Of a stretch of DNA of 64,000 nucleotides, positions 29,969-52,777 are shown one piece after another. Both the position numbers and the translations under genes were made by a program. Positions within the stretch are counted from its first letter, which is position 1, and each line of letters opens with the position of its first letter. The stretch is from contig JAJRWY010000131.1 in the NCBI GenBank assembly GCA_024276575.1, forward strand, positions 1,268-65,267, given 5' to 3'. The notes beneath the pieces were generated by a model. That model saw nothing but the letters and a program-made list of their open reading frames with translations. It had not been told where the DNA came from and ran no database searches. The stretch comes from Candidatus Binatota bacterium. Lineage in GTDB: Bacteria; Desulfobacterota; Binatia; UBA1149; CAITLU01.

Positions 29969-30045
<77 letters not shown>

Positions 30046-30082
30046 CTTTCCGGCGGTTCCGATTCTCGAGGTTCCGCCGAGC

Positions 30083-30159
30083 GCGCCAGTAGCTCAGTTG
30101 GATAGAGCATCGGCCTTCTAAGCCGGTGGTCGCAGGTTCGAGTCCTGCCTGGCGCGCCA
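30083..30159 (+). tRNA. tRNA-Arg (anticodon TCT)
   Basis: Acceptor GCGCCAG/CTGGCGC, D-arm AGCTCAGTTGGATAGAGC, anticodon loop CTTCTAA, T-loop GGTTCGAGTCC, and an encoded CCA. Confidence 0.85.
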
Positions 30160-31101: not shown

Positions 31102-31454
31102 GACACATCGATTTTGTCCGGTGCTGTCCGTGCTGGGTGTGCGGCAAGGTTTCTTCTGATCGTCAGCCCACCCACGCCGATCATCGTCCTACTCGTGGAT
31201 CCGGCCAGTCGCGAGACGACCATACCTGGCCGCTGTGTGCCGACCACCACATCGGACCGCAGGGGATCCACAGCTTGGGCGAAGACACTTTCCAGGAGCG
31301 CTACGGCGTCGGCTACGTGACGGCGATCTACTACCTGATCAGCGTCTACCAGGTGGCGTGGGTGTCCGAGGTCAAGGATCGCGACAAGGCGCGCGAGATC
31401 GGATACCGCGCGGTCAGCCTCGTGCGTGAGTCGGCTTGGAGGGAGGCGGCATGA
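31098..31454 (+). CDS. putative HNH-like nuclease (DUF968-like CxxC...HH motif protein)
   Basis: CPCWVCGK ... THADHRPTRGSG ... PLCADHH. Start taken at MRHIDF, coupled via ATGA. Confidence 0.4.
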   Translation: MRHIDFVRCCPCWVCGKVSSDRQPTHADHRPTRGSGQSRDDHTWPLCADHHIGPQGIHSLGEDTFQERYGVGYVTAIYYLISVYQVAWVSEVKDRDKAREIGYRAVSLVRESAWREAA

Positions 31455-31777
31455 GAGCGAGTCGTCCCTACTACGGTCGTGACCAGGATCTACAGCCTGA
31501 GCTGTTCGCTCCCCACAACCACACGGACACGAGCAAGGCCGCGGCCAAGTACATCGCCATCACATCCCAGACCAAGCGGGAGCGCATTTACCGGCTGCTC
31601 TGCGAGCTCGGGATCGAGGGGGCAACAAACGAAGAGATGTCGCGCGCGCTCGGCATGCCGATTCAGACGGTGTGCGGGCGGGTAGCGGAGCTACGGGAAG
31701 AAAAACGGGTGGTTGATTCCGGCCGGCGTCGTCCGGGCGCGTCTGGAGTCAACGCGAAAGTATGGAGGGCCACATGA
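31451..31777 (+). CDS. winged-helix DNA-binding protein
   Basis: RERIYRLLCELGIEGATNEEMSRALGMPIQTVCGRVAELREEKRV is wHTH-like; ATGA overlap. Confidence 0.4.
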   Translation: MRASRPYYGRDQDLQPELFAPHNHTDTSKAAAKYIAITSQTKRERIYRLLCELGIEGATNEEMSRALGMPIQTVCGRVAELREEKRVVDSGRRRPGASGVNAKVWRAT

Positions 31778-36014: not shown

Positions 36015-36530
36015 ATGGGGACCAGCAAGAAAAAGGCTACGAAGAAAGCTTCGACGAAGAAATCGACGAAGAAGAAAGTCGCCAAGAAGAAAGTCGCCAA
36101 GAAGAAGGTCACCAAGAAGAAGGTCACCAAGAAGAAGGTTGCTGCGAAAGCGGCTACGCCCGCGAAGCGAGGCCGAAAGCCCGGCCAAGTTGATACCGAA
36201 CCGCGCAAGCTGCGCGAGGATCCGGTACAGCCGTCCCTGGATCTTACCTACGAAACAGATCGCAAGCGTAAGCTCAAAGCTGAGGCGGACCTCAAAGAGG
36301 CCCAGGCCGCCAAAGCGAAGCTTGAGCGTGATGCAACGCTCGGTCGGCTGATCTCGTTGGAAGACCATGAGGCCGCGCTGGTCGAGCGCGTGCGCGTGTT
36401 GAAGAAGGCGCTACTGCGTCAGGCTCAGCGCTTGGGGCCCATGGTTGCCGGGCTAGATCCACGTGAAGCCACGGCACTGATTCAGCGTGAGAACGAAGGG
36501 CTCATCCGGGAGTTCGCGGGGCAGTTGTAG
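36015..36530 (+). CDS. Lys-rich DNA-binding protein, candidate terminase small subunit
   Basis: N-terminal (A/T)KKKV repeats encoded by a 15-bp tandem DNA repeat; a C-terminal helical domain; sits immediately upstream of the terminase large subunit. Confidence 0.35.
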   Translation: MGTSKKKATKKASTKKSTKKKVAKKKVAKKKVTKKKVTKKKVAAKAATPAKRGRKPGQVDTEPRKLREDPVQPSLDLTYETDRKRKLKAEADLKEAQAAKAKLERDATLGRLISLEDHEAALVERVRVLKKALLRQAQRLGPMVAGLDPREATALIQRENEGLIREFAGQL

Positions 36531-36532
36531 CG

Positions 36533-38515
36533 ATGGCCGGAAGTGCACTAGCGCGAGTCTGGACCGAGCCCGAGCGCGATGCGTGGAAGCTGCCAGGAGA
36601 GATCACTCCGAGTGAGTGGGCCGATGAGAACCGCCGGCTGAATCCGAAGTTCTCAAATGAAAGCGGCCGATGGCGGACGGCTCGCACTCCATATCTGCGT
36701 GAGATCATGGATACCCTGATCGACCCTCTTGTCGAGCAGGTCACGTTCATGAAGGCGACTCAGATCGGCGCCACGGAGGCAGTGCAGAACCTCGTGGGCT
36801 ACACGATCGATCAAATGCCGTCCCCCCTGCTGTACGTGATGCCCACCGAAGAAGATGCCAAGGGTATCGCCGGCGAGCGTCTGAAGTCACTGGTCAACGA
36901 GACGCCGGCGGTGGCGGCACACAAAACCGATCGATCCAACGATCTACGCGGGTCCCTGTGGATGCTCGACGAAATGGTCATGCGGCTGGCGTGGCCGACG
37001 GCCTCAAAGCTTGCGTCGATGCCGGTGCGGATTGTCATCATCGACGAGGTCGACAAGATCGAGAAGTTCACGGGGAAAGAGGCCAACCCGCTTGAGCTCG
37101 CCCGCGACCGCACCGACACCTTCAAATCTACCCGGAAGCTCTACGTGGTCTCGAGCCCGACCAACGAAGACGGCCATGTGCATCTGGAGTTCGAGGATTC
37201 CGACAAGCGGCGCTACTGGGTGCCTTGCCCGCACTGCCACGGCTATCAGCCGCTTGTGTTCGGCGGCAAGGGCGGTGGTGGCGGGATCAAGTGGCCGGTA
37301 GACGAGCGGGATCCGGAACGCATCAAGGCGCTCGACCTGGCTTACTACGAGTGTGATCTGTGCGCCGGCGAGATCCGCGATCACTACAAACCGTTGATGC
37401 TCGAGGCCGGCGTATGGTGCCCGGAAGGCTGCGAAGTCGGGCCCGGCGGGAAGATCAAGGGGGATATTCCGCAGACGACCCACCGCGGCTATCACCTGTC
37501 GGCACTGTACTCGCCGTGGAAGGATTTCTCCGAGCTCGTTGCCGAGTGGCTGAAGGCCAAGTCGCGCCCGGACAAGCTGCAGAACTTCCTAAACTCGCGG
37601 CTTGCTCAGGTTTGGCGTGAAAAGCTAGACTCGACGAAGACCTCAGAAGTCGAACACCTGGAGCTGCCTTACAGAAAGGCCGGTGAGGATCCGATTGTGC
37701 CGGCCGATGCCATTGTGATCACGGCTGCGATCGACGTGCAGAAAGATCATGTCTGGGTGGAGATCCGTGCGTGGGGCGTCGGTGAGACGTCCTGGCTTGT
37801 TCAGTGGCTGCGCCTACCGCGTTACTTGCATCCCTTTGAGGGCGAGACCGAGCACGACCAGTGGCGCGACGTTGTGAGATACGTGATCCGTTCCGAGTTT
37901 GAGCGCGAAGACGGCGGACCGGCGATGACTCCGCGGCTCATCGGAATCGACTCCGGCCACTTTACAGACGAGGTCTATGCGTTCAGCCGGCGCTTTTCTC
38001 CGTTACTGATTCCTTTGAAGGGCAGCAATCAACCGATGAGAGGGGCTCACTACCGGGCCAGCCACATAGAGAAGGATCGCCGCGGCCGAGTTCGCCAGCG
38101 TGGCATTGTGCTGTGGTGGGTGGATCCCTTCTACTACAAGCCGAAGCTGCACCGGATGATGCAGACCGAGCCGGGAATGCCGGGTCGCTGGCACGTCTAC
38201 CAGGACGTCGAGCAGGAATTCAAGGACCAGGTGACGGCCGAGGAGCTCGTCATCGAGCGCAATCGCCGAACAGGCGCCGCGAAGACAGTGTGGCGGCTCA
38301 AGGAAGGCCGCAACGCGAACCATCTCGGAGACTGTGCGGTCTACAACCTCGCTCTGGCCGACATTGTGGGCGTGGGGATGCTGACCGAGGCTCATCTGGA
38401 GCAGGTTCGCCGGGTACCAACGAGTGGCCGCTCGACCGAACCGGAGGAATCGCGCTCTCGGCGTGGCGGTAGCGGCTGGATCAATCGTGGCGGCGGGAAG
38501 TGGCTGGATCGGTGA
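36533..38515 (+). CDS. terminase large subunit (gpA-like)
   Basis: 660 aa; Walker-B-like IIDEVDK; central CPHCHGYQ ... CDLCAGEI Cys cluster. Confidence 0.8.
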   Translation: MAGSALARVWTEPERDAWKLPGEITPSEWADENRRLNPKFSNESGRWRTARTPYLREIMDTLIDPLVEQVTFMKATQIGATEAVQNLVGYTIDQMPSPLLYVMPTEEDAKGIAGERLKSLVNETPAVAAHKTDRSNDLRGSLWMLDEMVMRLAWPTASKLASMPVRIVIIDEVDKIEKFTGKEANPLELARDRTDTFKSTRKLYVVSSPTNEDGHVHLEFEDSDKRRYWVPCPHCHGYQPLVFGGKGGGGGIKWPVDERDPERIKALDLAYYECDLCAGEIRDHYKPLMLEAGVWCPEGCEVGPGGKIKGDIPQTTHRGYHLSALYSPWKDFSELVAEWLKAKSRPDKLQNFLNSRLAQVWREKLDSTKTSEVEHLELPYRKAGEDPIVPADAIVITAAIDVQKDHVWVEIRAWGVGETSWLVQWLRLPRYLHPFEGETEHDQWRDVVRYVIRSEFEREDGGPAMTPRLIGIDSGHFTDEVYAFSRRFSPLLIPLKGSNQPMRGAHYRASHIEKDRRGRVRQRGIVLWWVDPFYYKPKLHRMMQTEPGMPGRWHVYQDVEQEFKDQVTAEELVIERNRRTGAAKTVWRLKEGRNANHLGDCAVYNLALADIVGVGMLTEAHLEQVRRVPTSGRSTEPEESRSRRGGSGWINRGGGKWLDR

Positions 38516-38790
38516 CGGCCTGGATCGACAGAGACGGCCCGTGGCTCGGAGATCGCCGGCGCCGGTCAGAACCTGAGCCTCAGAAGGCCAAAACAGAGGC
38601 TGAAGACTACGCTGTGCCGTATCTGCCGGCCTATTGCCCGAAGTGCAACCGCGATGACAAGGTCACGGTGACCACTACACGCCGTTCCGAGCCGCCGGTG
38701 ACCCGCTACCTGCACTGTCACCGCTGCGGACACAATTTCCGCTCCTTTCAGTGCAAACTGGGCCCAAATGGCACTTTGGTCGTAACTTAG
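38500..38790 (+). CDS. small zinc-ribbon protein
   Basis: CPKCN ... CHRCGH; overlaps the terminase end. Confidence 0.3.
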   Translation: MAGSVTAWIDRDGPWLGDRRRRSEPEPQKAKTEAEDYAVPYLPAYCPKCNRDDKVTVTTTRRSEPPVTRYLHCHRCGHNFRSFQCKLGPNGTLVVT

Positions 38791-38817
38791 TACTACGTTG
38801 TAGTACGTACTTTCCCC
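38787..38817. promoter_or_regulatory. conserved palindromic motif copy 1 (TAGTACTACGTTGTAGTACGTACTTTCCCC)
   Basis: Near-identical to the motifs at 52687-52730 and 60071-60112. It begins at the stop codon of the preceding gene, ~45 bp upstream of gpW. Confidence 0.55.
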
Positions 38818-38859
38818 AAAAACCCGTCACGAGAACCCGAAATCGGCAATTCTTGGCTC

Positions 38860-39090
38860 GTGGCGACGAGTGTATCCACATTTCAGACGCGGCTTGAGGC
38901 CGCTGAGACGGCCTATGACCAGATGATGACGGACGGTCGTGGGATCGTGCGCTATCGCGAGCCCGGCGGGAACTTCATCGAGAAGGATCCGGCGGCCATG
39001 CAGGCCTACATCGAGTACCTACAGCGCCGTATTGCAGCGAAGACGGCCGGTTCGACCACTACGGTTGTCAGCCTAGGTAGGGTCGGATGA
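38860..39090 (+). CDS. gpW-like head-tail joining protein
   Basis: 76 aa between terminase and portal, as in lambda. Confidence 0.45.
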   Translation: MATSVSTFQTRLEAAETAYDQMMTDGRGIVRYREPGGNFIEKDPAAMQAYIEYLQRRIAAKTAGSTTTVVSLGRVG

Positions 39091-40700
39091 GCGTACAGAC
39101 GGCCACTCCTACGGTCACGGATCGTGTGATCACCCGCTATTGGCCTGGTTGGGGTCTCAAGCGGCTTCGGGCCCGCACAGCGGCCGCGGCCATTGGTGCC
39201 ATGGCCAGTGGCTTCCGTTCTGCGAGACAGACCCGGCTGCAATCGGATTGGGTTCCCACCTTGGGATCGGCCGACACTGACGCTCTCCGTGACCTCGACA
39301 CCTTGCGCGCGAAGAGTCGAGATCTCGTCCGAATGGACTCTTACGCCCAGGTATTGGGATCGATTGTCGACCATGTCGTGGGTACTGGGCTCGTTCCGCA
39401 CTCTCGCGTAAACGCGAAGGCACTTGGAATTACCGAGGCCGTGGCCGAGGATTTCCAGGAGCAGGCTGAACTAGCGTTCTCGGTGTGGATGCCGTTTGCC
39501 GACGCAAGACGCCAGCTCGATTTCTACGGGCTCCAAGAACTGGCCTACAGGTCAATGCTCGAGGACGGCGAGTGGTTCGGCCGACGAATCTCGGTCGACG
39601 AAGTCTCGATGCAGGCGCTTGGTATGCCGTACTCGGTTGCCTACGAGATGATCGATCCCGACCGGGTCGTTTCACCAAACAAGGCGGTATTCCAGAAGCT
39701 CGGGGGAAGGACAGAACATACCGTTCGCCATGGCATCGAAGTCAACGTCTTCGGAGCTCCGGTGGCGTATTGGGTACTCAAGCGTCATCCGGCAGAGCGC
39801 GGCTTCGTTGCGCTCAGGGGCCGTAGCAACAGTGAGTTCGTCCGCGTTCCTGCCAGCCGGATGATTCATCTCTTTCGGCCGCTTCGGGTGGGCCAGACTC
39901 GCGGCATTCCGCACATGGCTCCGGAGCTCAACACCTTCGAAATGATCAATCGGTTGTTCGAAGCCGAGCTCGTGACTGCTCTGGTGGTCGCTTGCCACTC
40001 GATCTTTATCAAGAAGGACTCTGCTGCCGAGTACGCGGCGACGGTTGCTCCAATCACGAACGACAGGGGACAGCGAGAGGAAACGCTGGAACCCGGAACG
40101 AAACAGTATCTGAACCCGGGCGAGGATGTTGTTGCCTTTAGCCCGAATCGACCGAGCAATACCTTCCCGCCGTTTGTCGAGATCTTGCTCAGGAAGATGG
40201 CTACCGGTTTGGGAATTACCTACGAGCAGCTCGCCAAGGACTTTACGAAGACCAACTTCTCCAGTGGTCGACAAGCCGCGATGCTCGCCCAGAAGTTCTT
40301 CAATCGCGAGCAGCGAATGGTGGCGCGGGTGTTGGCGCAGCCTGTCTGGCGTGACGTGCTTCGCGAAGCGGCCCAGGCGGGCGATCTACCTCGTATCAGC
40401 GAGATAAACCGCTCTCGTGAGCCCTTCTACTTCAATGCGACATGGAGCGGTCCTGGCTACGGCTACATCGAGCCGACCAAAGAGGTCGCAGCGGCCAAGG
40501 CCGGCGTCGATATGGGAATTTCTACGCTCGAGCGCGAGTGCGCAAAGCTTGGTCTTGATTGGCGCGATGTACTGGCCCAGCGAGCTCGTGAGCAGCGGAA
40601 GGCGGAGGAATTGGGGGTGACCTTGGACGGCCCTGCTGCAGTTGTGGAGACTTTGGGCGCGGTTCGCGGTTATGACGACGAAGATAGGCAAGCAGCATGA
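39087..40700 (+). CDS. portal protein (lambda gpB family)
   Basis: 537 aa; position and size; ATGA coupling. Confidence 0.75.
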   Translation: MSVQTATPTVTDRVITRYWPGWGLKRLRARTAAAAIGAMASGFRSARQTRLQSDWVPTLGSADTDALRDLDTLRAKSRDLVRMDSYAQVLGSIVDHVVGTGLVPHSRVNAKALGITEAVAEDFQEQAELAFSVWMPFADARRQLDFYGLQELAYRSMLEDGEWFGRRISVDEVSMQALGMPYSVAYEMIDPDRVVSPNKAVFQKLGGRTEHTVRHGIEVNVFGAPVAYWVLKRHPAERGFVALRGRSNSEFVRVPASRMIHLFRPLRVGQTRGIPHMAPELNTFEMINRLFEAELVTALVVACHSIFIKKDSAAEYAATVAPITNDRGQREETLEPGTKQYLNPGEDVVAFSPNRPSNTFPPFVEILLRKMATGLGITYEQLAKDFTKTNFSSGRQAAMLAQKFFNREQRMVARVLAQPVWRDVLREAAQAGDLPRISEINRSREPFYFNATWSGPGYGYIEPTKEVAAAKAGVDMGISTLERECAKLGLDWRDVLAQRAREQRKAEELGVTLDGPAAVVETLGAVRGYDDEDRQAA

Positions 40701-42097
40701 ACGACGAGGGAATCTTGCAACTATTCGCGCGACCTTGGGCGATCGAGCCGAGCGCACTGCGGCTCATCGTTGAGTCTGTAGTTAACGTAACGAAGGGGAC
40801 GGAACCAGCCGCTGCCAAAACGGCTTCACGCGGGACGTCGGCGGGTTCGGAAGCCGCCGCAGGAGACTTTGGCGGTTCGGGTCGCCCCTTCCGGCTTGAG
40901 GGAAGCACGGCCGTCATTCCCATCGAAGGAACCATCTCGAAACGGCTTTCTCCGATTTTCGCGTTCTTCTTCGGGGGCACCAGCGTTGAAAGCGTTCGCA
41001 CGGCGCTGCAGGCCGCAGAGGCGGACGACCAGGTCGAGCGCATACTGCTCGACATCGATTCGCCCGGAGGATCCGTCAACGGGATTTCCGATCTGGCCGA
41101 TGAAATCAGGGCCACGAGCAAGCCGGTCATTGCCTACAGCGATGGCTTGATGGCATCCGCAGCGTATTGGCTCGGCGTCGCTGCAGACCAGGTTTTTGCG
41201 AGTGCGGCCTCCCAGGTCGGATCCATTGGCGTGCTTGCCGTCGTCGACGACATTTCCGTTGCCCTCCACAACCACGGGATCAAGACGACCATCATCAAAG
41301 CCGGTGAGCATAAGGCGGCCGGTCATCCAGACCAGCCTTTTACCGAGAAGGATCGGGAGGTCATCCAGGAAGAGGTCAACGACTTCTATGAGCTGTTTAC
41401 CGGCGCGGTGGGACGCTTCCGATCCATGTCACGCGACGACGTGCTGAGCGCGGCTGACGGTCGTGTGTTCATAGGCAGCAAGGCTCTGGAGAAGGGCCTC
41501 ATTGACGGCATTCGCAGCCGGGGCGAACTCGGCGTGATGCTTGCGGATAACGAGACAGGAGTAACGACGATGAAAGAGAAGCAAGCCAAGGCCGAAGCGG
41601 CCGAGCAGGAACGATTGGAGGCAGAAGAGGCCGAAAAGGTGAAGGCAGAGGAGCAAGCCAAGGCCGAAGCGGCCGCTCGTGCCAAAGAAGTCGATGCTGG
41701 CGGTTTGGACGAGGAGGCGTTGAAGCTCAAGGCTCGCGAGGAAGAGCGCGAGCGGCTGTGTGCTTTGGATGCCATTGCAACGGACTGGCCCTCGCACAAG
41801 GAGCTCGTTGATCAATGCAAGGCCGACGGGACTAGCGCCGAGGAGACGAAGCAACTCGTGTTCGCTGCGGCGACCAAGCTGAATCGTGCCGAACTCGCGG
41901 CGGCTCGTAAGGGCGAGGAAGAACCCCTCGGCGGCGGAAACACCGACCACGAGGCCAAGGCCTTCAGTGAGGAGGCCGTCAAGGAGCGGTGGGAGGCCGG
42001 AGACACCTACCTCCACCGGTACTACTCGGACGTCAATCAGGCGATTCGATACGAGAGAGCCAAGCATGGCGCGGCTCAGCAAAGGGCGCAGGCGTAG
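40697..42097 (+). CDS. S49-family prohead protease with C-terminal scaffold-like coiled coil (gpC/Nu3-like)
   Basis: SppA/S49 motifs (LLDIDSPGGSV ... SAAYWLG ... GSIGV); C-terminal KAEAAEQERLEAEEAEKVKAEEQ. Confidence 0.8.
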   Translation: MNDEGILQLFARPWAIEPSALRLIVESVVNVTKGTEPAAAKTASRGTSAGSEAAAGDFGGSGRPFRLEGSTAVIPIEGTISKRLSPIFAFFFGGTSVESVRTALQAAEADDQVERILLDIDSPGGSVNGISDLADEIRATSKPVIAYSDGLMASAAYWLGVAADQVFASAASQVGSIGVLAVVDDISVALHNHGIKTTIIKAGEHKAAGHPDQPFTEKDREVIQEEVNDFYELFTGAVGRFRSMSRDDVLSAADGRVFIGSKALEKGLIDGIRSRGELGVMLADNETGVTTMKEKQAKAEAAEQERLEAEEAEKVKAEEQAKAEAAARAKEVDAGGLDEEALKLKAREEERERLCALDAIATDWPSHKELVDQCKADGTSAEETKQLVFAAATKLNRAELAAARKGEEEPLGGGNTDHEAKAFSEEAVKERWEAGDTYLHRYYSDVNQAIRYERAKHGAAQQRAQA

Positions 42098-42115
42098 CCT
42101 GCAGGAGGTGACAAG

Positions 42116-42676
42116 ATGACGACTCTTGCTGCAAATGTAGCTCGTCGGATCGATCTCAAGGGCCGGGTTCTCAACCCGCCCGTGATTGCGTCCGACATCA
42201 TCTGGGGTGGCGCCGCGGTCGGTGACAATGGCAGCGGCTATGCGCGTCCCCTGGTAGCCGGGGATCCGTTCCTCGGATTCGCCAACGAGAAAGTAGACAA
42301 CAGTCTCGGCGCCGCCGGCGATAAGGCTGTCGAGGTTTGGGCGGACGGCTATGCCTGGCTGTCGGTAAGCGGCATCAGCGGCGTCGGTAATGCGCTGCTG
42401 CCGGTCTATGCGAGCGATGACGACACGTTTACTGCAACGCGGTCGGGGAACTCGTACATCGGCCAAGCGGTTTACTACGACACAGCCACGGGCCTGGCCC
42501 TGGTTCGATTCAAGGCCAACTCGCCGCAGTCGGCGATTGCGGATGCGGTCGTCGCGCACGATGCGAACCCGACGTTCTCGGATACCGAGATCGAGGGCTT
42601 CCTCGATGCCTTGGGCACGAAGATCAACGCGATCATCGATGCGCTCGAACTCGCCGGCATCATAGTACCGAGCTAG
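42116..42676 (+). CDS. head decoration-like protein
   Basis: 186 aa between the protease and the capsid; by position only. Confidence 0.35.
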   Translation: MTTLAANVARRIDLKGRVLNPPVIASDIIWGGAAVGDNGSGYARPLVAGDPFLGFANEKVDNSLGAAGDKAVEVWADGYAWLSVSGISGVGNALLPVYASDDDTFTATRSGNSYIGQAVYYDTATGLALVRFKANSPQSAIADAVVAHDANPTFSDTEIEGFLDALGTKINAIIDALELAGIIVPS

Positions 42677-42695
42677 TCGGAGGAGGACGAAGAAA

Positions 42696-43652
42696 ATGTA
42701 CGAGATTCTCAAGAGCACGGAAATAAAGCGTCTTATCGCCGACATGATCGGTGCGACTACGCTCGAGTCGTGGGTAGGGCGCATCGCCATGGGACCTGTC
42801 GGGTCCAACTCGGCGTCGGAGACGTATGCAGGGCTGCAAGTGCCGCCTGTGATGCGCAAGTGGCTCTCGGGTCGATCGCCGAAGGAACTCCGCGAGGATT
42901 CCATCACGATCGTCAATGATGAGTACGAGGCTTCGATCATCATCCCGAAGCGTTTCATGCGGCGGGACAAGATCGGCGCCATAGATCCCATCATTCAGGG
43001 CCTGGCCGATCGTTCGGTACAGCATTGGCGCTCGCTGATCGCGACACTGATCGTCAACGCCCAGTCGACCAACTGTTACGACGGTCAGTACTTCTTCGAT
43101 ACGGATCACCCCATCGGAGATACGGGGTCGACGCAGTCCAACGACATCAGCGCCGACATTTCGACGTATCCCGTGGTGAAGGCCGGCACCACGACCAATC
43201 CGTCGGTCGAGGAGGCGTCGTTCGCTCTGCTCGATGGTATCAACCAGATCTTGTCGTTGAAGGACGGCGAGGGTGAGCCGATGAACGAGGATGTCAGCGA
43301 CTTCGTCGTGGTCTGTCCTTTGAGCCTGCGAGCGGCGTTGGCTGCCGCTGTAGGTGGAGCACCGGCGTCCACGTCGGGAGCTCCCGAGGCGTTGAGGGCT
43401 CTGGGTACGAATATCCAGGTCGTCGGAACGCCCCGGCTGAGCTCGTGGATCACGAAGTTCGCGGTGTTCGCGGCCGACGTGCCGAACCGTCCCTTCATCA
43501 TGCAAGAAGAGCCGGAGGCCGAGGAAGTCAATGTCAAGGCGGAAGGGTCGGACTTCGAGTTCGATCACAACGCCCACCAGTACGGCGTGAGCGCTTCCCG
43601 CGGCGTCGGTTACGGGGCTCCGCAGAGCGCGTGCCTCGTGACGCTGGTCTAG
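42696..43652 (+). CDS. major capsid protein
   Basis: 318 aa following protease and decoration genes; Shine-Dalgarno GGAGGAGG. Confidence 0.55.
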   Translation: MYEILKSTEIKRLIADMIGATTLESWVGRIAMGPVGSNSASETYAGLQVPPVMRKWLSGRSPKELREDSITIVNDEYEASIIIPKRFMRRDKIGAIDPIIQGLADRSVQHWRSLIATLIVNAQSTNCYDGQYFFDTDHPIGDTGSTQSNDISADISTYPVVKAGTTTNPSVEEASFALLDGINQILSLKDGEGEPMNEDVSDFVVVCPLSLRAALAAAVGGAPASTSGAPEALRALGTNIQVVGTPRLSSWITKFAVFAADVPNRPFIMQEEPEAEEVNVKAEGSDFEFDHNAHQYGVSASRGVGYGAPQSACLVTLV

Positions 43653-43662
43653 GGAGGCGGTC

Positions 43663-44070
43663 ATGAGCACGGAGATCCAGTTGGTCGCAGCTTCGGCGGT
43701 GAGGTCGATCGAGGAAGGGCAACTCCTCTTCGTAGGCAATCTCGTCGAGGGCTGTGATCTCAAGCGCACGGTGAACTGTGCCACCGGTGGCCACCTCATG
43801 GTGGTCGCCGGCGGTGCCGGTGCCGGCGCATTGGCTTTGACCATCCCGCTGATCATCAACGGCTCCAAGTGTGCTCCCGGCCACGCCTTGGCTCGCGGTG
43901 AGTTAGTCGACGACGTAAGTGCCGACGATGTCACCGAGGCCATCCGAACTGGCGCGGTGCGATTCGTCACCGTCGAGGGTGGCAAGTCCGCCGGCGAGTC
44001 ACCGGCTAAGGAGCCGCAGGAAGAGAAGTCTTCCCGTGGGAAGGGTAAAGGCAAGGGCAAGGGAAAGTAG
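43663..44070 (+). CDS. head completion/hypothetical protein with C-terminal (GK)n tail
   Basis: Position. Confidence 0.3.
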   Translation: MSTEIQLVAASAVRSIEEGQLLFVGNLVEGCDLKRTVNCATGGHLMVVAGGAGAGALALTIPLIINGSKCAPGHALARGELVDDVSADDVTEAIRTGAVRFVTVEGGKSAGESPAKEPQEEKSSRGKGKGKGKGK

Positions 44071-44073
44071 GCC

Positions 44074-44406
44074 ATGGCCTGGGCTGACGCTGTCAAGGCC
44101 GATGCCGAGGCCGTAGCCAACCCCGCCGAGCTCGGGGAGGAGATCACCTATACGCCGCACAACGGCTCACCGACGACTGTCAGAGCCGTCGTGCGGCGTA
44201 ATCCCGAGGAGATCGCCGGTAACGTCAAGCGTGACGCGGTTGAGATCACCGTCCCCAATTCCGCGACCTATGGAGTGACCAGCATCACCCGTGGCCAAGA
44301 CACGGTGACGCTAGAACCCATACTCGGCGCCGGAAATGAAACCCTACGCGTAGTGGAGATCTTGGCGCACGGCCAAGGGTGGTGGCACCTGCGGTGTCAT
44401 AGGTAG
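44074..44406 (+). CDS. head-tail adaptor-like protein
   Basis: Position and size (110 aa). Confidence 0.3.
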   Translation: MAWADAVKADAEAVANPAELGEEITYTPHNGSPTTVRAVVRRNPEEIAGNVKRDAVEITVPNSATYGVTSITRGQDTVTLEPILGAGNETLRVVEILAHGQGWWHLRCHR

Positions 44407-45057
44407 ATGGCAGACCTCGAGGTAAAGATTCACAGCGACAACGTGATTACGGCCATGCGGCTGTTTCCGGTCACGTTCGCCAGGTACATGCGCGGTGAGC
44501 TGTGGGGCCTCGGTGAGCAGTTTTGGCGAAAGGCCGGCAAAGCCTTTGGTGCGCAATCTCCGCATAAGCAGAGGCTTGCCCGCTTCTGGTTCATGGACCG
44601 GATCGGCAAGTACCTGCAGGGCAAGTACCTCAGCCAAGTCGAGATGGGGCTGTTTACTCATTCGCCGGCGATGGAGGCGCATGAGCAGGGTGCCTTAATC
44701 AGTGCGAACAGCGGAAGTCTTGCGATTCCGATTGCTGATGCTCTGGATCGGCTTGGCCGAGTGCGCACCCGTTTCAACCCCGGTAAGCGCTTCAAGCTCA
44801 AGGGCGAAGGGGGCTTTGATACGAGACTGTTGCCGTCGGACACGGAAGCGATTCCTATGCGCGGCAAGCTCTTCTTGGTCAAGAAGGACTCCTACGGTGA
44901 GGTGGCGGAGATTTACGCCCGCCTGGTCAAAGAGACTCGGCTTCGGGCCCGGCCGAGTTTCTTCAAGACTTGGGACCAGATGGGCCCGGCGAAAGCGCGG
45001 GCGATCAACAAAGCGGCTGAGCGCACTCTGCGCAAGATGGGCTTGTCTACGAGGTAG
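44407..45057 (+). CDS. head-tail connector/tail completion-like protein
   Basis: Position. Confidence 0.3.
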   Translation: MADLEVKIHSDNVITAMRLFPVTFARYMRGELWGLGEQFWRKAGKAFGAQSPHKQRLARFWFMDRIGKYLQGKYLSQVEMGLFTHSPAMEAHEQGALISANSGSLAIPIADALDRLGRVRTRFNPGKRFKLKGEGGFDTRLLPSDTEAIPMRGKLFLVKKDSYGEVAEIYARLVKETRLRARPSFFKTWDQMGPAKARAINKAAERTLRKMGLSTR

Positions 45058-45059
45058 CC

Positions 45060-45530
45060 GTGCTCAATACCGTCCAACAGCTCATCATCGACGACCTGGT
45101 TACGACTCTGCAGGGGGTTACTGCGGCCAACGGGTACGAGTTCACGGTAAAGGCCGTCGAGGAATTCGAGGTCGAAGGCGTCGGGTCGGCACTGCGGCCG
45201 CTCATCGTGGTCTGGTCTGGCGCGATGGATCTGGAGAATGAGGCCGGTGGGCGGTCTCACTGGCGGTTTCGCGTCGAGCTCGACTGCTACCTGGTTCACA
45301 ACCCCAACGAGGACTCCGATGCCTCAAGCAAGGTGCTCACTCGCTTCACCGGCGACGTAGTCAAGGCGGTGATGGCCGATCGTACTCGTGGAGGCAACGC
45401 GTTGGATTGCAAGGTGGTGGGTGTGGACCCCATCCCCATGCTTCAGAACGAGGGTCTCGACATCAATGTGGGGATCACTCTTGAGATCCGGTATCGCCAC
45501 GTGGCCACGAACCCGGCGCAGGGGGGCTGA
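45060..45530 (+). CDS. tail terminator-like protein
   Basis: Position. Confidence 0.3.
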   Translation: MLNTVQQLIIDDLVTTLQGVTAANGYEFTVKAVEEFEVEGVGSALRPLIVVWSGAMDLENEAGGRSHWRFRVELDCYLVHNPNEDSDASSKVLTRFTGDVVKAVMADRTRGGNALDCKVVGVDPIPMLQNEGLDINVGITLEIRYRHVATNPAQGG

Positions 45531-45533
45531 TGA

Positions 45534-45869
45534 ATGCCTTCGCTGACACTGGTGCCGGAGTTCCAATACGACGTGACCGAGGAGTACTCGGTGATCGAAT
45601 CGCCGGATCTCGCCATTATCCATCGCCGGCCGAAACACACGCAGAAACGACGTGTGCTCAAGCTCGTGTGGCGCAATCTTACCAAGGCCGACAAGGACAC
45701 GCTCCGAGCGTTGTTTCTTGCGGTGAAGGGATCCGCCGGAGAATTCACCTACACGCCGGTCGACGAAGTCACTTCATCGACGTGGAAGTTCAAAGACGAC
45801 GAAGCCGCGTGGTCGATGCTTTCGGCCCGCCAACGGGCGGTGGAATTGGAAATCAGAGAGGCGCTGTGA
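45534..45869 (+). CDS. hypothetical structural protein
   Basis: Position. Confidence 0.3.
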   Translation: MPSLTLVPEFQYDVTEEYSVIESPDLAIIHRRPKHTQKRRVLKLVWRNLTKADKDTLRALFLAVKGSAGEFTYTPVDEVTSSTWKFKDDEAAWSMLSARQRAVELEIREAL

Positions 45870-45887
45870 GCGCCCGGAGGTAGAGCA

Positions 45888-47267
45888 ATGCCTGAAGTAA
45901 CAAAGATCTCTCAGCTTGCGATGGCGCTCGAGGCGGCCGAGGGGACGGCCGAGACTCTGGCGGCTAGCGATGTCCGCGAAGTATTCGATCCGTCTCTTAG
46001 CTGGGACGTCTCGATGTTTGAGCGCAACCCGGTGCGTAGCCATATGGGCCGCAAGAAATCCAAGGTCGGGACGAAGGCCTTGGGCTTTGCCTACACGGAG
46101 GAGTTTCGCGGTAGCGGTTCCGCCTCTGCGGCGCCGGATTTCTTCAAGGATCTACAGTTGGCCGGATTCCAGCTCGAGGCGGCGAAATCGATCACGATCG
46201 GCGCGATCAGTGGCGGGCCTTTTCAGCACAACGAAACCGTCACCGGCGGTACCAGCGGAGCCACGGGCCGGGTTGTTTTCGACACCGCCGACGGCGCCGC
46301 AGCTCTCTACGTCGTGCCGATCGCCGGTACCTTCCAGAGCGGTGAGGTATTGACGGGCGGCACCAGTGGCGCCACGGCGACTTCGAGTGCAATCCCGGCA
46401 AGCCTCGGCGTGTTGGCGCGGCCGAGCTCGGCAAGGCAGATCTACTCGATGGGGATCGGCGCGATCAGCGGCGGGCCGTTTACGGGCGGAGAGCGAGTCA
46501 CGGGCGGTACCTCGAGCGCGAAGGGCCGGGTGCTCTTTGATACCAAGAACGGAGCCTCTACGCTGTACTTGCAGGTCCTGTCCGGTACGTTCCAAAGCGG
46601 TGAGACTCTCACCGGTGAGGACTCTGGCGCCACCGCGACCTCGAGCAGTACGGCTTCTCTGTCGGAACTCGTATGCCCGGCCGGCACGATGGCCTTCTAC
46701 GGTGGTCTCACCGTCCACAAGGTGCGTGGGGCGCGTTCCGGCGTGAAGTTCTCGTTTAAGGCCGGTGAGGTGCCTTCCGCGGCATTTGACGCCAAGGGGA
46801 TCTATGTGAGTGTCGTAGACGGTGCGTTGTTCTCTTCGGGGCTGCCGTCGATCACCAACGAGGGGCCGGTATTCTTGGGTAGCGGGGTAACTGTCGGTAG
46901 CTACCAGCCGGTGCTCGATCAGATCGAGATCGACATGCAGAACCAGGTGTCCGCTCACGCGTCAGCGGCCGAAGCCTCGGGGATGTTGCCGTTCTTGATT
47001 ACGGACCGTCAGCCCCAAATCACGCTGGACCCGGATGTAGTGGCCGAGGCTACGCATCCTTTCGTCGCGGATTGGCACGGCGAGGTCGAGCGGGCCGTGG
47101 ATTTCTCTTGGGGATCCTCGGCCGGCAACCGCTTCCGGGTCTTGGTGCCGGAGGTCCAGCCCAACGAGTTCTCGCCGGGAGACCGCGAGAACATCCGCAC
47201 CAGGCAAATCACCGGGCAGATCAACAGCTCGGCCGTGGATCAGGATCTTGTGATTCTGTCGTACTAG
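45888..47267 (+). CDS. major tail protein with two inserted GGPF ... TGGTSGAT repeat modules
   Basis: Position before G/GT and the tape measure; internal ~85-aa tandem duplication. Confidence 0.5.
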   Translation: MPEVTKISQLAMALEAAEGTAETLAASDVREVFDPSLSWDVSMFERNPVRSHMGRKKSKVGTKALGFAYTEEFRGSGSASAAPDFFKDLQLAGFQLEAAKSITIGAISGGPFQHNETVTGGTSGATGRVVFDTADGAAALYVVPIAGTFQSGEVLTGGTSGATATSSAIPASLGVLARPSSARQIYSMGIGAISGGPFTGGERVTGGTSSAKGRVLFDTKNGASTLYLQVLSGTFQSGETLTGEDSGATATSSSTASLSELVCPAGTMAFYGGLTVHKVRGARSGVKFSFKAGEVPSAAFDAKGIYVSVVDGALFSSGLPSITNEGPVFLGSGVTVGSYQPVLDQIEIDMQNQVSAHASAAEASGMLPFLITDRQPQITLDPDVVAEATHPFVADWHGEVERAVDFSWGSSAGNRFRVLVPEVQPNEFSPGDRENIRTRQITGQINSSAVDQDLVILSY

Positions 47268-47275
47268 GGGGACAG

Positions 47276-47698
47276 ATGCCCATAACAGTCGGAAGAGAAA
47301 CCTATAAGTACGCTGTGACCGACAAGGCGTCTGGTGAGAGTTTTGAGGTCACGCTCGAAACTCTTAACCAGCGCCAATACGGCGAATGCATGCAGCGTTT
47401 CAGCCGATACCTGCCAGGCACCGGCGGCGTTCTCGATGCGGATACGATCATGGGTGATTTCGCTCGGTTCATCGAGGACATGACCCACGTGGTGGCGTTG
47501 AGTCTGCGCGCAGTGCGTGGACTCAACGACCGCGGTGGCAATGACCTTGAAGTGCCCAAGGACTTCGATCAGCGCGTGGGCTTCATCGAGGAGTATTTCA
47601 CGACGGACTGGACCCAGGAGTTGGCCACGGAAGTGTTTGAGAGAAACACGGTTACGGAGGCGGAAGCGGGAAACTCCGCCTCGCCGCCCAACTCCTGA
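47276..47698 (+). CDS. tail assembly chaperone (gpG-like)
   Basis: 140 aa, acidic, immediately upstream of the tape measure. Confidence 0.6.
   Translation: MPITVGRETYKYAVTDKASGESFEVTLETLNQRQYGECMQRFSRYLPGTGGVLDADTIMGDFARFIEDMTHVVALSLRAVRGLNDRGGNDLEVPKDFDQRVGFIEEYFTTDWTQELATEVFERNTVTEAEAGNSASPPNS
47668..47674 (+). other. -1 programmed frameshift slippery heptamer G_GGA_AAC (gpG to gpGT)
   Basis: XXXYYYZ heptamer in the G frame 22 nt before the G stop. The -1 frame is open from here to about 48000, overlapping the tape-measure start. Confidence 0.55.
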
Positions 47699-47983
47699 CG
47701 GGAGGGTTTCCGGAGCACTCGGGAGGGTGCCCCTCGGATCTGGAGCAGAGGCGGCGTTTCGGATGTGACGAGGATGCACCCACGGCGACATGGAGAGATG
47801 AGCACGGAAAGCGTCATTACCGATGCCCTATGCATTACCTTGACCGGGGGATCTGGCTCTTCCTATCGGGCTATTCCCATTACAAGGCAGGACACCTACC
47901 CGAGGGGGGCGGTGTCTTGGATCAATCGGCGACCTTTCTGCAGGCAACCGAGATTCTCGGGGGAGCAATAGCGAGGCTGACCG

Positions 47984-50053
47984 ATGGCGGAAAGAAAGAC
48001 TCTTGAGATAGTCGCCAAGCTCAAAGATCTGGTTTCGAAGAACACGGGCCGGATCCGCGAGTCGATCTCGCGAATGTCGCTGGGGATCAGCCGGTCGTTT
48101 CAGTCGGCGACCCGGGCGGTCTTCAACATGCGCACGGCGCTTCTCGGCCTGGCCGGCGGCGCGGTAGCGCGTGAGTTTGTGTCGGCCGGTGCTTCGGTAC
48201 AGCGATTCCGGGTACAGCTCGAGGCCTTGATGCAAGACGAGGCGCGAGCGGCCAAGGTGTTGAACGACATCCGTCGCTTTGCCGCTGAATCTCCGCTGGA
48301 AACCGAGAACCTGGTCGAGGCCTTCGTGAACTTGGAGGCCGTTGGAGTGCCGGCCGCCGAGCGGGCCGTGAAGCAACTCGGCAACGTGGCTGTCATCTTC
48401 AACCGTGACATACGCGACGTCGCCTCCGGCTTTATCGGAGTGGAAACGGAGGTACTTCGCCGACTCGGCGTCGAGTTGAAGCGAGCCGGGGACACGGCGG
48501 TCCTGCAGTCGGGGAAGATCCGTATCGAGACCGAAAACACGACGGTTGCGATTAGAGAAGCGCTACTGGAGTTGTGGGGCAAGCGCTTTCCTAACGCTAT
48601 GGAGCGGGCCGGAACGATGTGGGACGCCCAAATGGCCAAGTTCCGCGGCGCGCTCTTCGAGTTGAGAGCCGATATGGTCGCACACGTCATGCCGTCGATC
48701 GGTAAGACGCTCGATCGGCTAAGCGATGCGATAAACCGCAACCGTGACCGCATTGTGGCCATGGCGCGGTCGATGGGCCAGGTCTGGTCTCTTGCCGTCG
48801 AGTTTATCAAGAAGAAGTTCGACAACACGCTAGGCTCCACGGCATGGTGGGCGCGCGTTCCGGAACGAGCTGTTAAGGCGACGTGGGGCATCGTTAGCGC
48901 CTTCCTCGGCGCTTTGCAGATCATCATGAAGAACTGGCGCGAGGTCGGGTCGCTGATCTTCCAGCCGATCCTTACGGCTGTAGCTATAGGTTTCCGCACC
49001 CTGTTCACCCAGATACAGGAGTCGATTCGCGCGCTGGTCAACTGGATGAGCTTTGCTTTGCCGGATTCCTGGGTTGAGGCGGTTAACTCGATGCGCCTTA
49101 CCTGGGATGAGGCCGCAAGATTCAACCAGGACGCGATCGAAGACATGCTCACCAAGGTGAAGGCGTCATTCGATGTTATCATCGGCGAGATTCGTGATGC
49201 CGGAGTCAACAGCGAGAATATCGGTGGCGCGCTCGAGGAAGCCGGCCGAAGTACAGGATTGCTCGCGCTGGTTCAGCGGATAAATGCTGTCGTCGAGCGA
49301 AACCTAGAGGCGGTAAAGAAGACGCGGGCGGCGTTGGGTGGTGGGGCACCGGCGACGGGAGGAGGTCCTGTTCTCGGTAGCGCTGGCGCCGGGGGGCAAG
49401 AGGGCGATAGAGACCCTAACAAGAAGACTTTCTGGCAGGAACTGAAAGAGTCTATCGCGAATACGCTTACGGAGCTTTCGAAGTTCGAGATCAAAGCCTC
49501 CGAGATAGCGCAGAATGTGGGTGAAGCGTTCCAGACGAGCTTTGGAAGAGCGTTCAAGAATGTCGCCAAGGGGATGCAGTCAGTTGGTGACGCTATGAAG
49601 AGCATCCTTGATTCTGTGTTGGAACGAATAGCCGACGTGCTTCTTCAGATTGCAGCCATGAAGGCCCAGGCGTTGGCCTCGAGGGCACTTCTTGGTGCGG
49701 GCTTCAATCTCGGGTTTACGGCGGCCAACGGTGCGATCATGGCGGGCGGGTGGCAGCCGGCGGCCAGTTTTGCGGCAGGTGGGATCGTTCGCGGGCCGAC
49801 ACTCGGGATTCTTGGTGACAACTCCAGTCGCGTCGAAGCGGCGGTGCCCATGCCGGACGGGAAACACATTCCCGTTGATCTACGTGGCGGCGGTCAGAGT
49901 GAGATCAACGTGAATTTCACTGTCGTGGCGACGGATCCTCGCGGGATTCAGCAGATGCTTGTCGGCGAGAAGCGAACCATCATAGATCTATTTCGGGAAG
50001 CCTTGGCGACGGAACCGGGCCTGCGGAACGAAGTTCGCGGGATACGACGCTAG
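47984..50053 (+). CDS. tail tape measure protein
   Basis: 689-aa helical protein after G/GT. Confidence 0.8.
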   Translation: MAERKTLEIVAKLKDLVSKNTGRIRESISRMSLGISRSFQSATRAVFNMRTALLGLAGGAVAREFVSAGASVQRFRVQLEALMQDEARAAKVLNDIRRFAAESPLETENLVEAFVNLEAVGVPAAERAVKQLGNVAVIFNRDIRDVASGFIGVETEVLRRLGVELKRAGDTAVLQSGKIRIETENTTVAIREALLELWGKRFPNAMERAGTMWDAQMAKFRGALFELRADMVAHVMPSIGKTLDRLSDAINRNRDRIVAMARSMGQVWSLAVEFIKKKFDNTLGSTAWWARVPERAVKATWGIVSAFLGALQIIMKNWREVGSLIFQPILTAVAIGFRTLFTQIQESIRALVNWMSFALPDSWVEAVNSMRLTWDEAARFNQDAIEDMLTKVKASFDVIIGEIRDAGVNSENIGGALEEAGRSTGLLALVQRINAVVERNLEAVKKTRAALGGGAPATGGGPVLGSAGAGGQEGDRDPNKKTFWQELKESIANTLTELSKFEIKASEIAQNVGEAFQTSFGRAFKNVAKGMQSVGDAMKSILDSVLERIADVLLQIAAMKAQALASRALLGAGFNLGFTAANGAIMAGGWQPAASFAAGGIVRGPTLGILGDNSSRVEAAVPMPDGKHIPVDLRGGGQSEINVNFTVVATDPRGIQQMLVGEKRTIIDLFREALATEPGLRNEVRGIRR

Positions 50054-50058
50054 ACGGA

Positions 50059-50595
50059 CTACTTCCGAGCCGTCCGCGTTTCGTCTTCACGGACCTTCAG
50101 TCCCCACGGGCTTTTGTACATGCGGCCCTCGCTCCATGCACGATAGAGATCCTCTTGTTCCAGCAACCAGCCCGTCTGGCCGGCGGTAAGGTCGAAGTAC
50201 GCGACCGCAGTAAATGGGACCGTGGAAATGGTCCCGCCGAACGTATTGGTCCCGTAGACATGTGATTTGCCCGGATGTCCCAGCACGTAAACCTTATGAC
50301 CTTCAAGGATAACGGTTCCCCCACGGACCGGATACTCGACGAGAACGGTGGATCCTTCGGCGCGGCTCCCAAAGCCTTCGACATAGAGTTGGAACGTTGC
50401 GCCGGTGTCCAAATCCTCACGGATCCAGAGTACCTCTCCGGAAAAAGCGTACAGCTCATCCGCATGCGCTTCGGGATTCTTTTGAATCCTCACTAGATCT
50501 TCGAAGCCATGGAGTGGATAGGACCTGACGGCCTTCTGCATTACAGCGCAACCAGAGAGAAGAGTGAGCGTGAGAAATAGAGCTATACGTTTCAT
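50059..50595 (-). CDS. lipoprotein (weak Slp-like), candidate superinfection-exclusion factor
   Basis: Lipobox LTLLSGC; ATGA-coupled to the upstream WYL gene. Confidence 0.5.
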   Translation of the reverse strand: MKRIALFLTLTLLSGCAVMQKAVRSYPLHGFEDLVRIQKNPEAHADELYAFSGEVLWIREDLDTGATFQLYVEGFGSRAEGSTVLVEYPVRGGTVILEGHKVYVLGHPGKSHVYGTNTFGGTISTVPFTAVAYFDLTAGQTGWLLEQEDLYRAWSEGRMYKSPWGLKVREDETRTARK

Positions 50596-51098
50596 GCTGT
50601 GTCCTCCATCCACCGTTTGTAGGCCCGGCGTCCTCGGCCGCTGCGCTCCGTAAGCGAGACCTTCCTCATCCGTGCGAGTTTGAAGGTTCGCTCCTCATTA
50701 CGAAGTCGGCAGAAGGCGACAAGGTAATCGTTGCCTTCAAGCTCCAAGGGGGTAACCGATCTCGTGTTCCATTCTCCCGTGCCGCCGGTGTAGTACTCCA
50801 TGGTTATGTCTTGTTGAGACTCCATCGCTTCCTCGATGATCTTCCGGTTGGGCGCTACAACATCCTGATCGTCGTAGCGATTGCGGACGTCATCTGCGTC
50901 GTCGTAGAGCTGTGGCAATTCTTCGGTTTCGACTTCTGTGGGTGCTTCTCCAGAGCGTTGGCTGCGTCGGGTCCGCCACAAGTAAAAGAATATCCCCAGT
51001 GCAACGAGCGACGCTACAGGGTTGAGTCCCGGTTGGGCGCTCGTACTCAAAGCGACTATTGCGATGAGGAAAAGAAGCACTCTCCAAAGAAATCGCAT
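50592..51098 (-). CDS. two-TM membrane-anchored WYL-domain protein
   Basis: TM1 and TM2 in the first 45 aa. A C-terminal segment (ITMEYYTGGTGEWNTRSVTPLELEGNDYLVAFCRLRNEERTFKLARMRKV) matches the WYL consensus. Confidence 0.5.
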   Translation of the reverse strand: MRFLWRVLLFLIAIVALSTSAQPGLNPVASLVALGIFFYLWRTRRSQRSGEAPTEVETEELPQLYDDADDVRNRYDDQDVVAPNRKIIEEAMESQQDITMEYYTGGTGEWNTRSVTPLELEGNDYLVAFCRLRNEERTFKLARMRKVSLTERSGRGRRAYKRWMEDTA

Positions 51099-51116
51099 GT
51101 GTTCCCCCCTCCGAAC

Positions 51117-51758: not shown

Positions 51759-51955
51759 CGCGCGTTCCTCGGATTCTTCAGTTCCAACCCTAAATGCTTG
51801 GCTAGCACCGAGGCATTGGAAAGCTTCATGTCGGTTCCGGACAGGAACCTAGAAATCGTGGATTGAGGTATTCCGGTCTCGCCGGCGAGAGTCCGCGCGG
51901 ACTTCCCGGAAGTCTTGATGGCGGCCCGGAGTGTGTCTGCCAGGTCTTTCGGCAT
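51755..51955 (-). CDS. XRE-family HTH regulator
   Basis: SARTLAGETGIPQSTISRFLSG is a Cro/C1-type HTH; 4-nt overlap with the exonuclease gene. Confidence 0.65.
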   Translation of the reverse strand: MPKDLADTLRAAIKTSGKSARTLAGETGIPQSTISRFLSGTDMKLSNASVLAKHLGLELKNPRNAR

Positions 51956-51972
51956 GCCTCCCCCTACGGGCT

Positions 51973-51992
51973 ATGATGCATACATGCATATA
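51973..51992 (-). promoter_or_regulatory. ATGCAT-ACATGCAT repeat upstream of the XRE gene, candidate operator/promoter
   Basis: Two ATGCAT hexamers and a TATAT box lie 20-40 nt upstream of the XRE start. Confidence 0.3.
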
Positions 51993-52015
51993 GGGTGTCA
52001 AGGGGCGGTAGACGT

Positions 52016-52730: not shown

Positions 52731-52777
52731 ATAATCACGAATTTGCGCCACAGTAGGGGCTGAACCCGATCCAGTGG

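Follow-up and report, generated by a model that had tools for sequence, protein, structure and literature searches.

The window analysed here, a stretch of 64,000 nucleotides (nt) of contig JAJRWY010000131.1 from a Candidatus Binatota bacterium, harbors a lambda-like prophage in which one short palindrome occurs three times, in each case 5′ of a tightly packed block of plus-strand genes. Metabolic genes of the host fill positions 1 to ~29,900. The border of the prophage is marked by tRNA-Pro(TGG) and tRNA-Arg(TCT) at 29969-30159, a junction which is likely to be the integration site. Nearly all genes of the prophage are located on the plus strand, and the first of them are, in this order, an HNH-like DUF968 gene, a winged helix-turn-helix (wHTH) gene (31436-31777), an O-like replication initiator gene, a ParB-like gene, terS, and terL. 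The palindrome copies and the features around them, including a small Zn-ribbon gene and the blocks of structural and cargo genes, are listed in Table 1.

The core of the palindrome, the 17-mer GTACTACGTTGTAGTAC, was found at its three positions on the plus strand in a scan of the entire window, where chance would give 0.02 matches; none of 100 shuffled sequences reached three. A fourth match with up to three mismatches is absent from the whole window, and its 30 kb of host DNA contain no copy of the palindrome. The flank N-TACTT follows on the right side of all three copies. Further downstream, GATTCCCG is present 3′ of copies 2 (52720-52727) and 3 (60103-60110), and copy 1 carries AACCCG in equal register. 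These results bear out what the initial annotation had read from the letters, namely three identical copies, a common TACTT flank, and a downstream box shared by copies 2 and 3. They equally bear out its placement of copies 1 and 3 at the stop codons of the upstream genes (TAG 38788-38790 and TAA 60071-60073) and of copy 2 in the divergent region between the M-like gene and hicB (start 52587), the first gene of the minus-strand block. The arms of 7-8 base pairs (bp) given there are right for the core, but the dyad in fact extends imperfectly to ~10-13 bp per arm, and the arms of copy 2 are perfect over 10 bp (TAGGTACTAC-GTT-GTAGTACCTA).

Scans for the exact motif in 2.9 million viral contigs (IMG/VR) and in 185,579 species, represented by one genome each, returned single matches in unrelated taxa only, none of which has the N-TACTT flank; the viral match falls within a coding open reading frame (ORF). 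A wide distribution in the host had been named beforehand as an argument against a function. Given only single, unrelated matches without the flank, the motif is not a widespread host repeat.

Table 1. Late-gene blocks, palindrome copies and associated elements of the prophage in the window
Feature	Position	Strand	Remarks
terL, gpA type	36533-38515	+	
Zn-ribbon gene	38512-38790	+	92 amino acids (aa), four-cysteine; longest ORF from 38500; directly after terL; candidate activator
Palindrome copy 1	38784-38812	+	core GTACTAC-GTT-GTAGTAC at 38790-38806, centre 38798; overlaps stop codon of Zn-ribbon gene
C-rich box CCCGTC	38823-38828	+	25-30 nt 3′ of centre of copy 1; about -37 to -32 of the putative promoter
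-10-like hexamer AATTCT, copy 1	38848-38853	+	centre+50; GTG 38860 of gpW-like gene 6 nt on, no Shine-Dalgarno sequence
Predicted late operon 1	38860-50053	+	gpW-like, portal, protease/scaffold, capsid, tail genes, tape measure; synteny with locus L101
Cargo block	50059-52587	-	unknown 184-aa gene, WYL, RNase T-like (RNase T/DEDD) exonuclease, HicA, HicB
Palindrome copy 2	52685-52713	+	core 52691-52707, centre 52699; divergent region hicB / M-like gene
GATTCCCGCC box	52720-52729	+	register as at copies 1 and 3
-10-like hexamer CACAGT, copy 2	52749-52754	+	centre+50; 38 nt to ATG 52793
Predicted late operon 2	52793-60073	+	M-like (~830 aa), L, K-like, J-like tail-tip genes
Palindrome copy 3	60068-60096	+	core 60074-60090, centre 60082; starts at stop codon of J-like gene
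GATTCCCGTC box	60103-60112	+	downstream of copy 3
-10-like hexamer TACGAT, copy 3	60132-60137	+	centre+50; ATG 60144 6 nt on, no Shine-Dalgarno sequence
Predicted late operon 3	60144-64000	+	529-aa protein (60144-61733) whose N-terminus resembles a signal peptide, then ORF open past the window end

The palindrome in related phages

Neither GenBank nor IMG/VR contains a close relative phage, and BLAST of positions 36500-44000 against phage records gave no close phage. Exact look-ups of the proteins encoded in the window led to no recorded contig. Locus searches based on TerL in IMG/VR and JGI metagenomes led mostly to loci with at most 39% identity that span the head region only and had no palindrome repeated within the locus. 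A large protein search yielded a handful of relatives with 49-59% identity in TerL and 39-53% in J, and one relative found by gene product bears the source label Candidatus Binatia. The relatives compared are metagenomic loci that extend at most 10 kb from terL and J in either direction. Phages D and F, which share an ENA sample and are presumably identical, were counted as one.

In seven related phages (the window prophage, W, and those in Table 2) 15 sites were detected, all of them at three junctions: 3′ of the small Zn-ribbon gene after terL, 5′ of the M-like gene, and 3′ of the J-like gene. A search for the motif in related phages, as proposed in the initial annotation, was thus successful as to position and unsuccessful as to sequence, which differs from phage to phage. 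The half-sites GTACTAC, GTGCTAC, TTACCAC, and TTCCTAC are private to phages, and the palindrome centre is 3 nt long throughout. Identity over the centre ±9 nt amounts to 0.96 within a phage and 0.72 between phages; in phage A, a stretch of 38 nt is identical between the two sites. The flanks reach 0.24-0.30, with the left flanks at random identity.

Table 2. Palindromes of the related phages
Phage	Loci	Palindrome	Junctions
A	L101, L106	TTCCTAC-AGC-GTAGGAA	after Zn-ribbon gene; after J
B	L102, L107	GTTACCAC-GCC-GTGGTAAC	all three; copy before M with variant centre
C	L109	as in A	after J
D/F	L103, L192	GTGCTAC-GCC-GTAGCAC	all three
E	L191	GTACTAC-GCC-GTAGTAC	before M; after J
G	L193	GTGCTAC-ACG-GTAGCAC	after Zn-ribbon gene

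The turnover of the sequence is symmetrical. In an alignment of 16 rows (the 15 sites and a palindrome from the more distant locus L113), 15 of them distinct, pairing holds for the seven inner pairs in all rows except for one cell in the pre-M site of phage B. Three alternating positions (7/23, 9/21, and 11/19) show two-sided changes, each arm keeps four positions invariant (T-C-AC), and the core is free of G·T pairs. The covariation score of 0.387 compares with 0.136 for shuffles, of which none in 500 reached it, and with at most 0.153 for slid registers.

A palindrome precedes the M-like gene in the phages whose late genes are interrupted by reverse or foreign cargo (W, B, E, and F). It is absent from phage A, which is uninterrupted: its contig of 43.6 kb, nearly all covered by two loci, contains neither a reverse insertion nor a palindrome before the M-like gene. 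Phage C also has cargo, but its promoter differs there (TACTAT and a Shine-Dalgarno sequence).

A phased hexamer and the case for late promoters

Every position from -80 to +100 relative to the palindrome centre (180 offsets) was scanned for the minimal -10 pattern NANNNT. This pattern occurs at centre+50 in 11 of the 12 sites of W, B, D/F, E, and G, and at +51 in the twelfth. The second-best offset has four of 12 sites, and the background is 3.2%, which gives a binomial probability of ~4e-16 for centre+50, uncorrected for the 180 offsets. In phages A and C the hexamer stands at centre+39 in all three sites, which is closer by 11 bp, one turn of the helix. A consensus of G-N-(T/C)ANNNT emerges, with the G at -14 in 12 of the 15 sites. 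In contrast to this fixed distance, the spacer from +31 to +47 shows random identity (0.26-0.29), even among copies in one phage. With the hexamer taken as -12 to -7, the palindrome centre lies at about -62, and at about -51 in the A/C class, on the same helical face. A TTGACA-like -35 is lacking at all 15 sites, and a two-hexamer promoter scan flagged no site.

The next start codon on the plus strand follows 51-69 nt after the palindrome centre, with the exception of copy 2 of the window (94 nt). The distance between hexamer and start codon is 6-7 nt in nine of the 15 sites, 8-13 nt in five, and 38 nt in window copy 2, where the M-like gene truly begins at ATG 52793 (MATIPRTD, kept in relatives) and not at GTG 52778. 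These first genes lack a Shine-Dalgarno sequence, in contrast to the internal genes of their operons, which carry sites of the GGAGG type. Because the start codon stands 6-7 nt past the hexamer in these nine sites, their mRNA would be leaderless.

Divergent cargo genes on the minus strand of phages B (L107, ~6305-6333) and E (L191, ~6315-6343) provide a comparison. They are preceded by TTGACA-N17-TAGAGT or TAGTCT, ending 6 nt before the start, so that the host polymerase appears to use a -35 which the palindrome promoters lack. Judged by promoter position these cargo genes are leaderless as well, which suggests that hosts of this group make common use of leaderless initiation. A mirrored minus-strand promoter at the palindrome for the divergent cargo was rejected: no offset is shared among the sites, and in B and E the cargo is served by a TTGACA promoter of its own.

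A further element is found 21-30 nt 3′ of the palindrome centre (~-41 to -32), a box of the form GATTCC(C)G / CCCGTC (38819-38828, 52720-52729, and 60103-60112 in the window). It recurs at sites in L102, L107, L191, and L192 and is not phage-specific, as the palindromes of these phages differ. RNA polymerase or a conserved portion of an activator may contact this box.

We propose, with a probability of roughly 0.55, that each copy of the palindrome serves as an operator 5′ of a late promoter which depends on an activator. A dimeric DNA-binding protein encoded by the phage would recognize the palindrome over 17-23 bp and bring the host RNA polymerase to a promoter with a G-N-TANNNT -10 and without a TTGACA -35. 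Transcription would then begin at the start codon of the first gene or a few bases 5′ of it and give a leaderless mRNA. Three such promoters would serve the head and tail operon, the tail-tip operon, which is restarted past the reverse cargo, and the operon after J. It is the combination of features that recalls the site of a dimeric activator, since a palindrome which is private to each phage and symmetrical by Watson-Crick pairing keeps a phased distance to the -10 across a spacer that is not conserved. Promoter activity and activation rather than repression are what we infer from this arrangement, as is the identity of the binder discussed below. Most likely, the palindromes represent a variant of the known timing of late genes in phages, in a layout common to the relatives of which each has its own palindrome. 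Among the functions listed in the initial annotation, a dimer site for a late activator and a late-promoter element are favored by the phasing, by the private sequence at a conserved position, and by the Watson-Crick symmetry, and a repressor site has become the weaker option.

As an operator or roadblock, the palindrome would bind a phage or prophage repressor that stops read-through into the structural operons in lysogeny. Such a role would suit phage-specific palindromes recurring at operon junctions, directly 3′ of units for which transcription in the lysogen is conceivable, such as cargo with promoters of the constitutive type. However, a roadblock needs neither a fixed distance nor phasing to a -10, yet 50 or 39 nt are kept over a random spacer, and a centre near -62 would lie outside the polymerase footprint. 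Moreover, there are two to three sites per genome only, none of them in the early regions fetched, and the missing -35 is the mark of promoters in need of activation. We therefore regard repression as unlikely.

A hairpin in RNA or single-stranded DNA would act as a terminator that lacks a U-tract or is recognized by a factor, as an insulator, or as a stabilizer of 3′-ends, with an unrelated promoter nearby; it may coexist with a DNA operator. The copies after the Zn-ribbon gene and after J start at the stop codon of the upstream gene, compensatory change maintains complementarity, and some stems in relatives are long and very stable, with 11 bp in E and B and an outer helix in the pre-M site of F (-36 kcal/mol, z -7.8). 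The stems of the window are weak by comparison (-7 kcal/mol; z -1.5 to -2.0 for copies 1 and 3), A+T-rich, and not followed by a U-tract. Moreover, the pre-M copy of W, B, and E lies in a divergent region where no plus-strand gene ends. A terminator scan of the plus strand flagged none of the three window sites, and on the minus strand it flagged copy 3 only, with a count at chance level, in agreement with the earlier judgement that an intrinsic terminator is improbable. The Rfam 15 scan of 30000-64000 detected tRNA only, without any RNA family at gathering score over the palindromes. Structure alone would leave the identity within phages, the four invariant positions, the lack of G·U pairs, and the exact hexamer spacing unexplained. 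A hairpin as the primary function is likewise improbable.

A phage-specific hairpin repeated in one genome also recalls the lambdoid boxB, so that two further RNA roles have to be considered: a nut/boxB-like site at which an antiterminator of the phage binds, or processing of a long late transcript by RNase III. RNase III needs stems longer than 7 bp, and the 7-bp stems are too short for it; no boxA-like partner was seen upstream, and the fixed hexamer spacing would again be left unexplained. With a start of transcription predicted 3′ of the hairpin, the latter would not be part of the transcript of the operon it precedes, and the options of RNA processing or antitermination raised in the initial annotation are very unlikely for this reason. 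Least probable of all are passive repeats, such as scars of recombination at module boundaries or a small cargo-linked mobile repeat kept identical by gene conversion: the sites do coincide with variable gene content (the pre-M slot and the post-J genes), but their position is kept down to 39% identity in J and ~50% in TerL while the sequence turns over symmetrically and with compensation, their orientation and spacing to hexamer and start codon are fixed between unrelated flanks, and neither the host DNA of the window nor other genomes contain copies. A terminase-binding or cos site was rejected, there being three dispersed copies and none upstream of terS.

The candidate activator and known systems

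The protein most likely to bind the palindrome is, judging by gene position and conservation, the Zn-ribbon protein encoded just 5′ of copy 1. In a comparison that covered ~7-10 kb upstream of terL in W, A, B, D, and G, its ORF is the sole one 5′ of the first palindrome that is kept in all five phages, beside TerL and, in part, TerS. Other proteins were rejected as binders. The ParB-like protein is missing from A and B, HicB and WYL belong to cargo that differs among relatives, and the wHTH/DUF3489, O-like HTH_36, and DUF968/HNH proteins are each patchy in distribution. The wHTH and XRE proteins to which the initial annotation had pointed are not kept in the relatives that have the element.

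A word-indexed protein search with the window Zn-ribbon protein found only the protein itself. An exhaustive HMMER search assembled about 30 (32) representative clusters of a family with 70-110 aa, characterized by an N-terminal W..WLG and by CPxC...RYHxC..CG.FKS.E. Aligned with hhalign, the 28-member family matches the P2-type Ogr alignment with 95.6% probability (E 1.3e-8, 41 columns). Ogr_Delta (PF04606) gives the best Pfam E-value over the family members (2.2e-8) and matches 10 of the 28, and the P2-type Ogr of Salmonella phage SW9 in turn matches the family profile at 1.6e-4. The 92-aa protein of the window would therewith be a distant relative of the P2/P4 Ogr/Delta activators. In distant terL relatives with a Zn-ribbon gene, palindromes are found just 3′ of this gene as well, some of them in tandem (L113, L128/L043, L030, L038, L023, and L052). 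L113 has a hexamer at +50 with an ATG 7 nt on, and L030 has one at +40.

Several points speak against an activator-dependent promoter or against the Zn-ribbon protein as its activator. In L128 the palindrome centre is just 24 nt away from the hexamer, and the putative promoter at copy 2 of the window is the least certain of the three, as it is the sole site with a long gap between hexamer and start. Some copies have arms of 10-14 bp and the pre-M site of F its extra outer helix; arms of such length exceed the need of a protein site and hint at a hairpin role. The window protein itself matches the TFIIS Zn-ribbon model only (24.9 bits) and stays below PF04606. Its family has the cysteine spacing CPxC-X23-24-CxxC (CX2C-X23-24-CX2C) and not the CX2CX22CX4C of P2. 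Fold searches gave generic Zn-ribbon matches such as NrdR and TFIIS, and the nearest solved structure and viral models, of the archaeal Rpb9/TFIIS type and the NrdR N-terminal domain, are generic Zn ribbons as well. Given its fixed place after terL, the gene could equally serve packaging, and another conserved regulator could be located elsewhere, beyond the up to 10 kb seen around terL and J in the relatives.

The closest known system is the late activation of P2/186/P4, and the arrangement described here appears to work like it without being a strict member. As with Ogr, B, and Delta, there is a small four-cysteine Zn-binding phage protein, whose family is detectably related to Ogr/Delta, and there are several putative late promoters that bear a dyad and lack a good -35, for which activator dependence is deduced here from sequence. 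In P2, four late promoters with an upstream dyad TGT-N12-ACA are activated by Zn-finger proteins, and Ogr has the motif CX2CX22CX4C (PMC3931495). The span of the dyad is similar, GTA-N11-TAC here being one base shorter and different in sequence. Unlike the P2-like myoviruses, the phage in the window is lambda-like, with a gpA terminase, a lambda-type portal, and the L and J tail families. The candidate activator gene is located directly after terL, its product has another cysteine spacing and an added N-terminal W..WLG, and the dyad is a full palindrome of 7-10 bp that is private to each phage. The P2 dyad reportedly lies at about -55 (work of Christie and Calendar), compared with a predicted centre at -62 or -51 here, where the operons also seem to be leaderless. 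Activators of the P2-like systems bind the dyad and touch the alpha subunit of RNA polymerase, and their promoters are silent in their absence.

In phage Mu, the C protein of the Mor/C family activates four late promoters, which have a dyad site 5′ of the -10 and a poor -35. In contrast to the present candidate, C belongs to the helix-turn-helix proteins and its binding site spans the -35 region, and no Mor/C homologue was seen here. The conserved inverted repeats of phiC31 and the stoperators of mycobacteriophage L5 are likewise phage-specific short intergenic sites for one phage regulator. Those, however, are repressor sites in ~18-30 copies without phasing to a -10, asymmetric in L5, whereas two to three strictly phased copies are found here. 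Class I activator sites such as that of CRP at -61.5 offer a parallel in geometry, with a palindromic dimer site ~62 bp 5′ of the start, an alternative one turn off, and a free spacer sequence. Unlike CRP, the regulator here is apparently phage-specific and not a global one of the host, and the half-sites are unrelated to those of CRP/FNR.

On this basis, a testable map of late transcription can be drawn for phages known from metagenomes only, including three promoters, an operator, a candidate activator, and leaderless starts. It suggests that late activation of the Ogr/Delta type is not confined to P2-like phages. The reverse cargo, comprising a toxin-antitoxin system and possible defence genes, may be tolerated in the late operon because a promoter copy restarts transcription past it. 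The alternation of invariant and variable positions in the half-sites, together with a small Zn-ribbon protein, would provide a simple system for the co-evolution of specificity between regulator and site, and possibly a source of orthogonal promoter/activator pairs. More tentatively, and with less confidence than the promoter reading itself, we speculate that the Zn-ribbon genes after terL in lambda-like phages of uncultured bacteria encode a widespread, so far unrecognized branch of Ogr/Delta-like activators. Each would recognize a private palindrome with specificity set by three alternating variable pairs between the invariant T-C-AC positions, and the resulting orthogonal pairs would drive leaderless late operons, with the palindrome possibly doubling as a hairpin insulator.

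Further features of the prophage

The Zn-ribbon and gpW-like ORFs share a frame, with the TAG at 38788-38790 as the sole stop between them, so that read-through would fuse them; such a fusion was rejected as likely due to chance. The N-terminal motif W-I/F-x-x-R-x-G-x-W-L-G of the Zn-ribbon protein (38512-38560) resembles RxGWxxxxxGGWxxR, the C-terminal consensus of TerL relatives (~38440-38515).

The M-like gene (52793-55288) encodes ~830 aa in all relatives. Models of minor tail proteins match only the last ~100 aa, and the large N-terminal part has no family match. The slot between the tape measure and the M-like gene has different contents in B, C, and E, with a WYL gene in F (L107, L109, L191, and L192 were compared), and looks like a hot spot for moron or defence genes. 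The first product after J has an N-terminus like that of a signal peptide or lipoprotein in every relative and varies in length from 278 to 1589 aa; a second long ORF starts at ~61740 and runs beyond 64000. The integrase is encoded at the far end in the relatives L107, L109, and L191, and beyond the window end in the prophage described here. In phage A, a 263-aa gene between the protease and major capsid genes contains tandem coding repeats of 12 and 21 nt (L101, 15990-16320).

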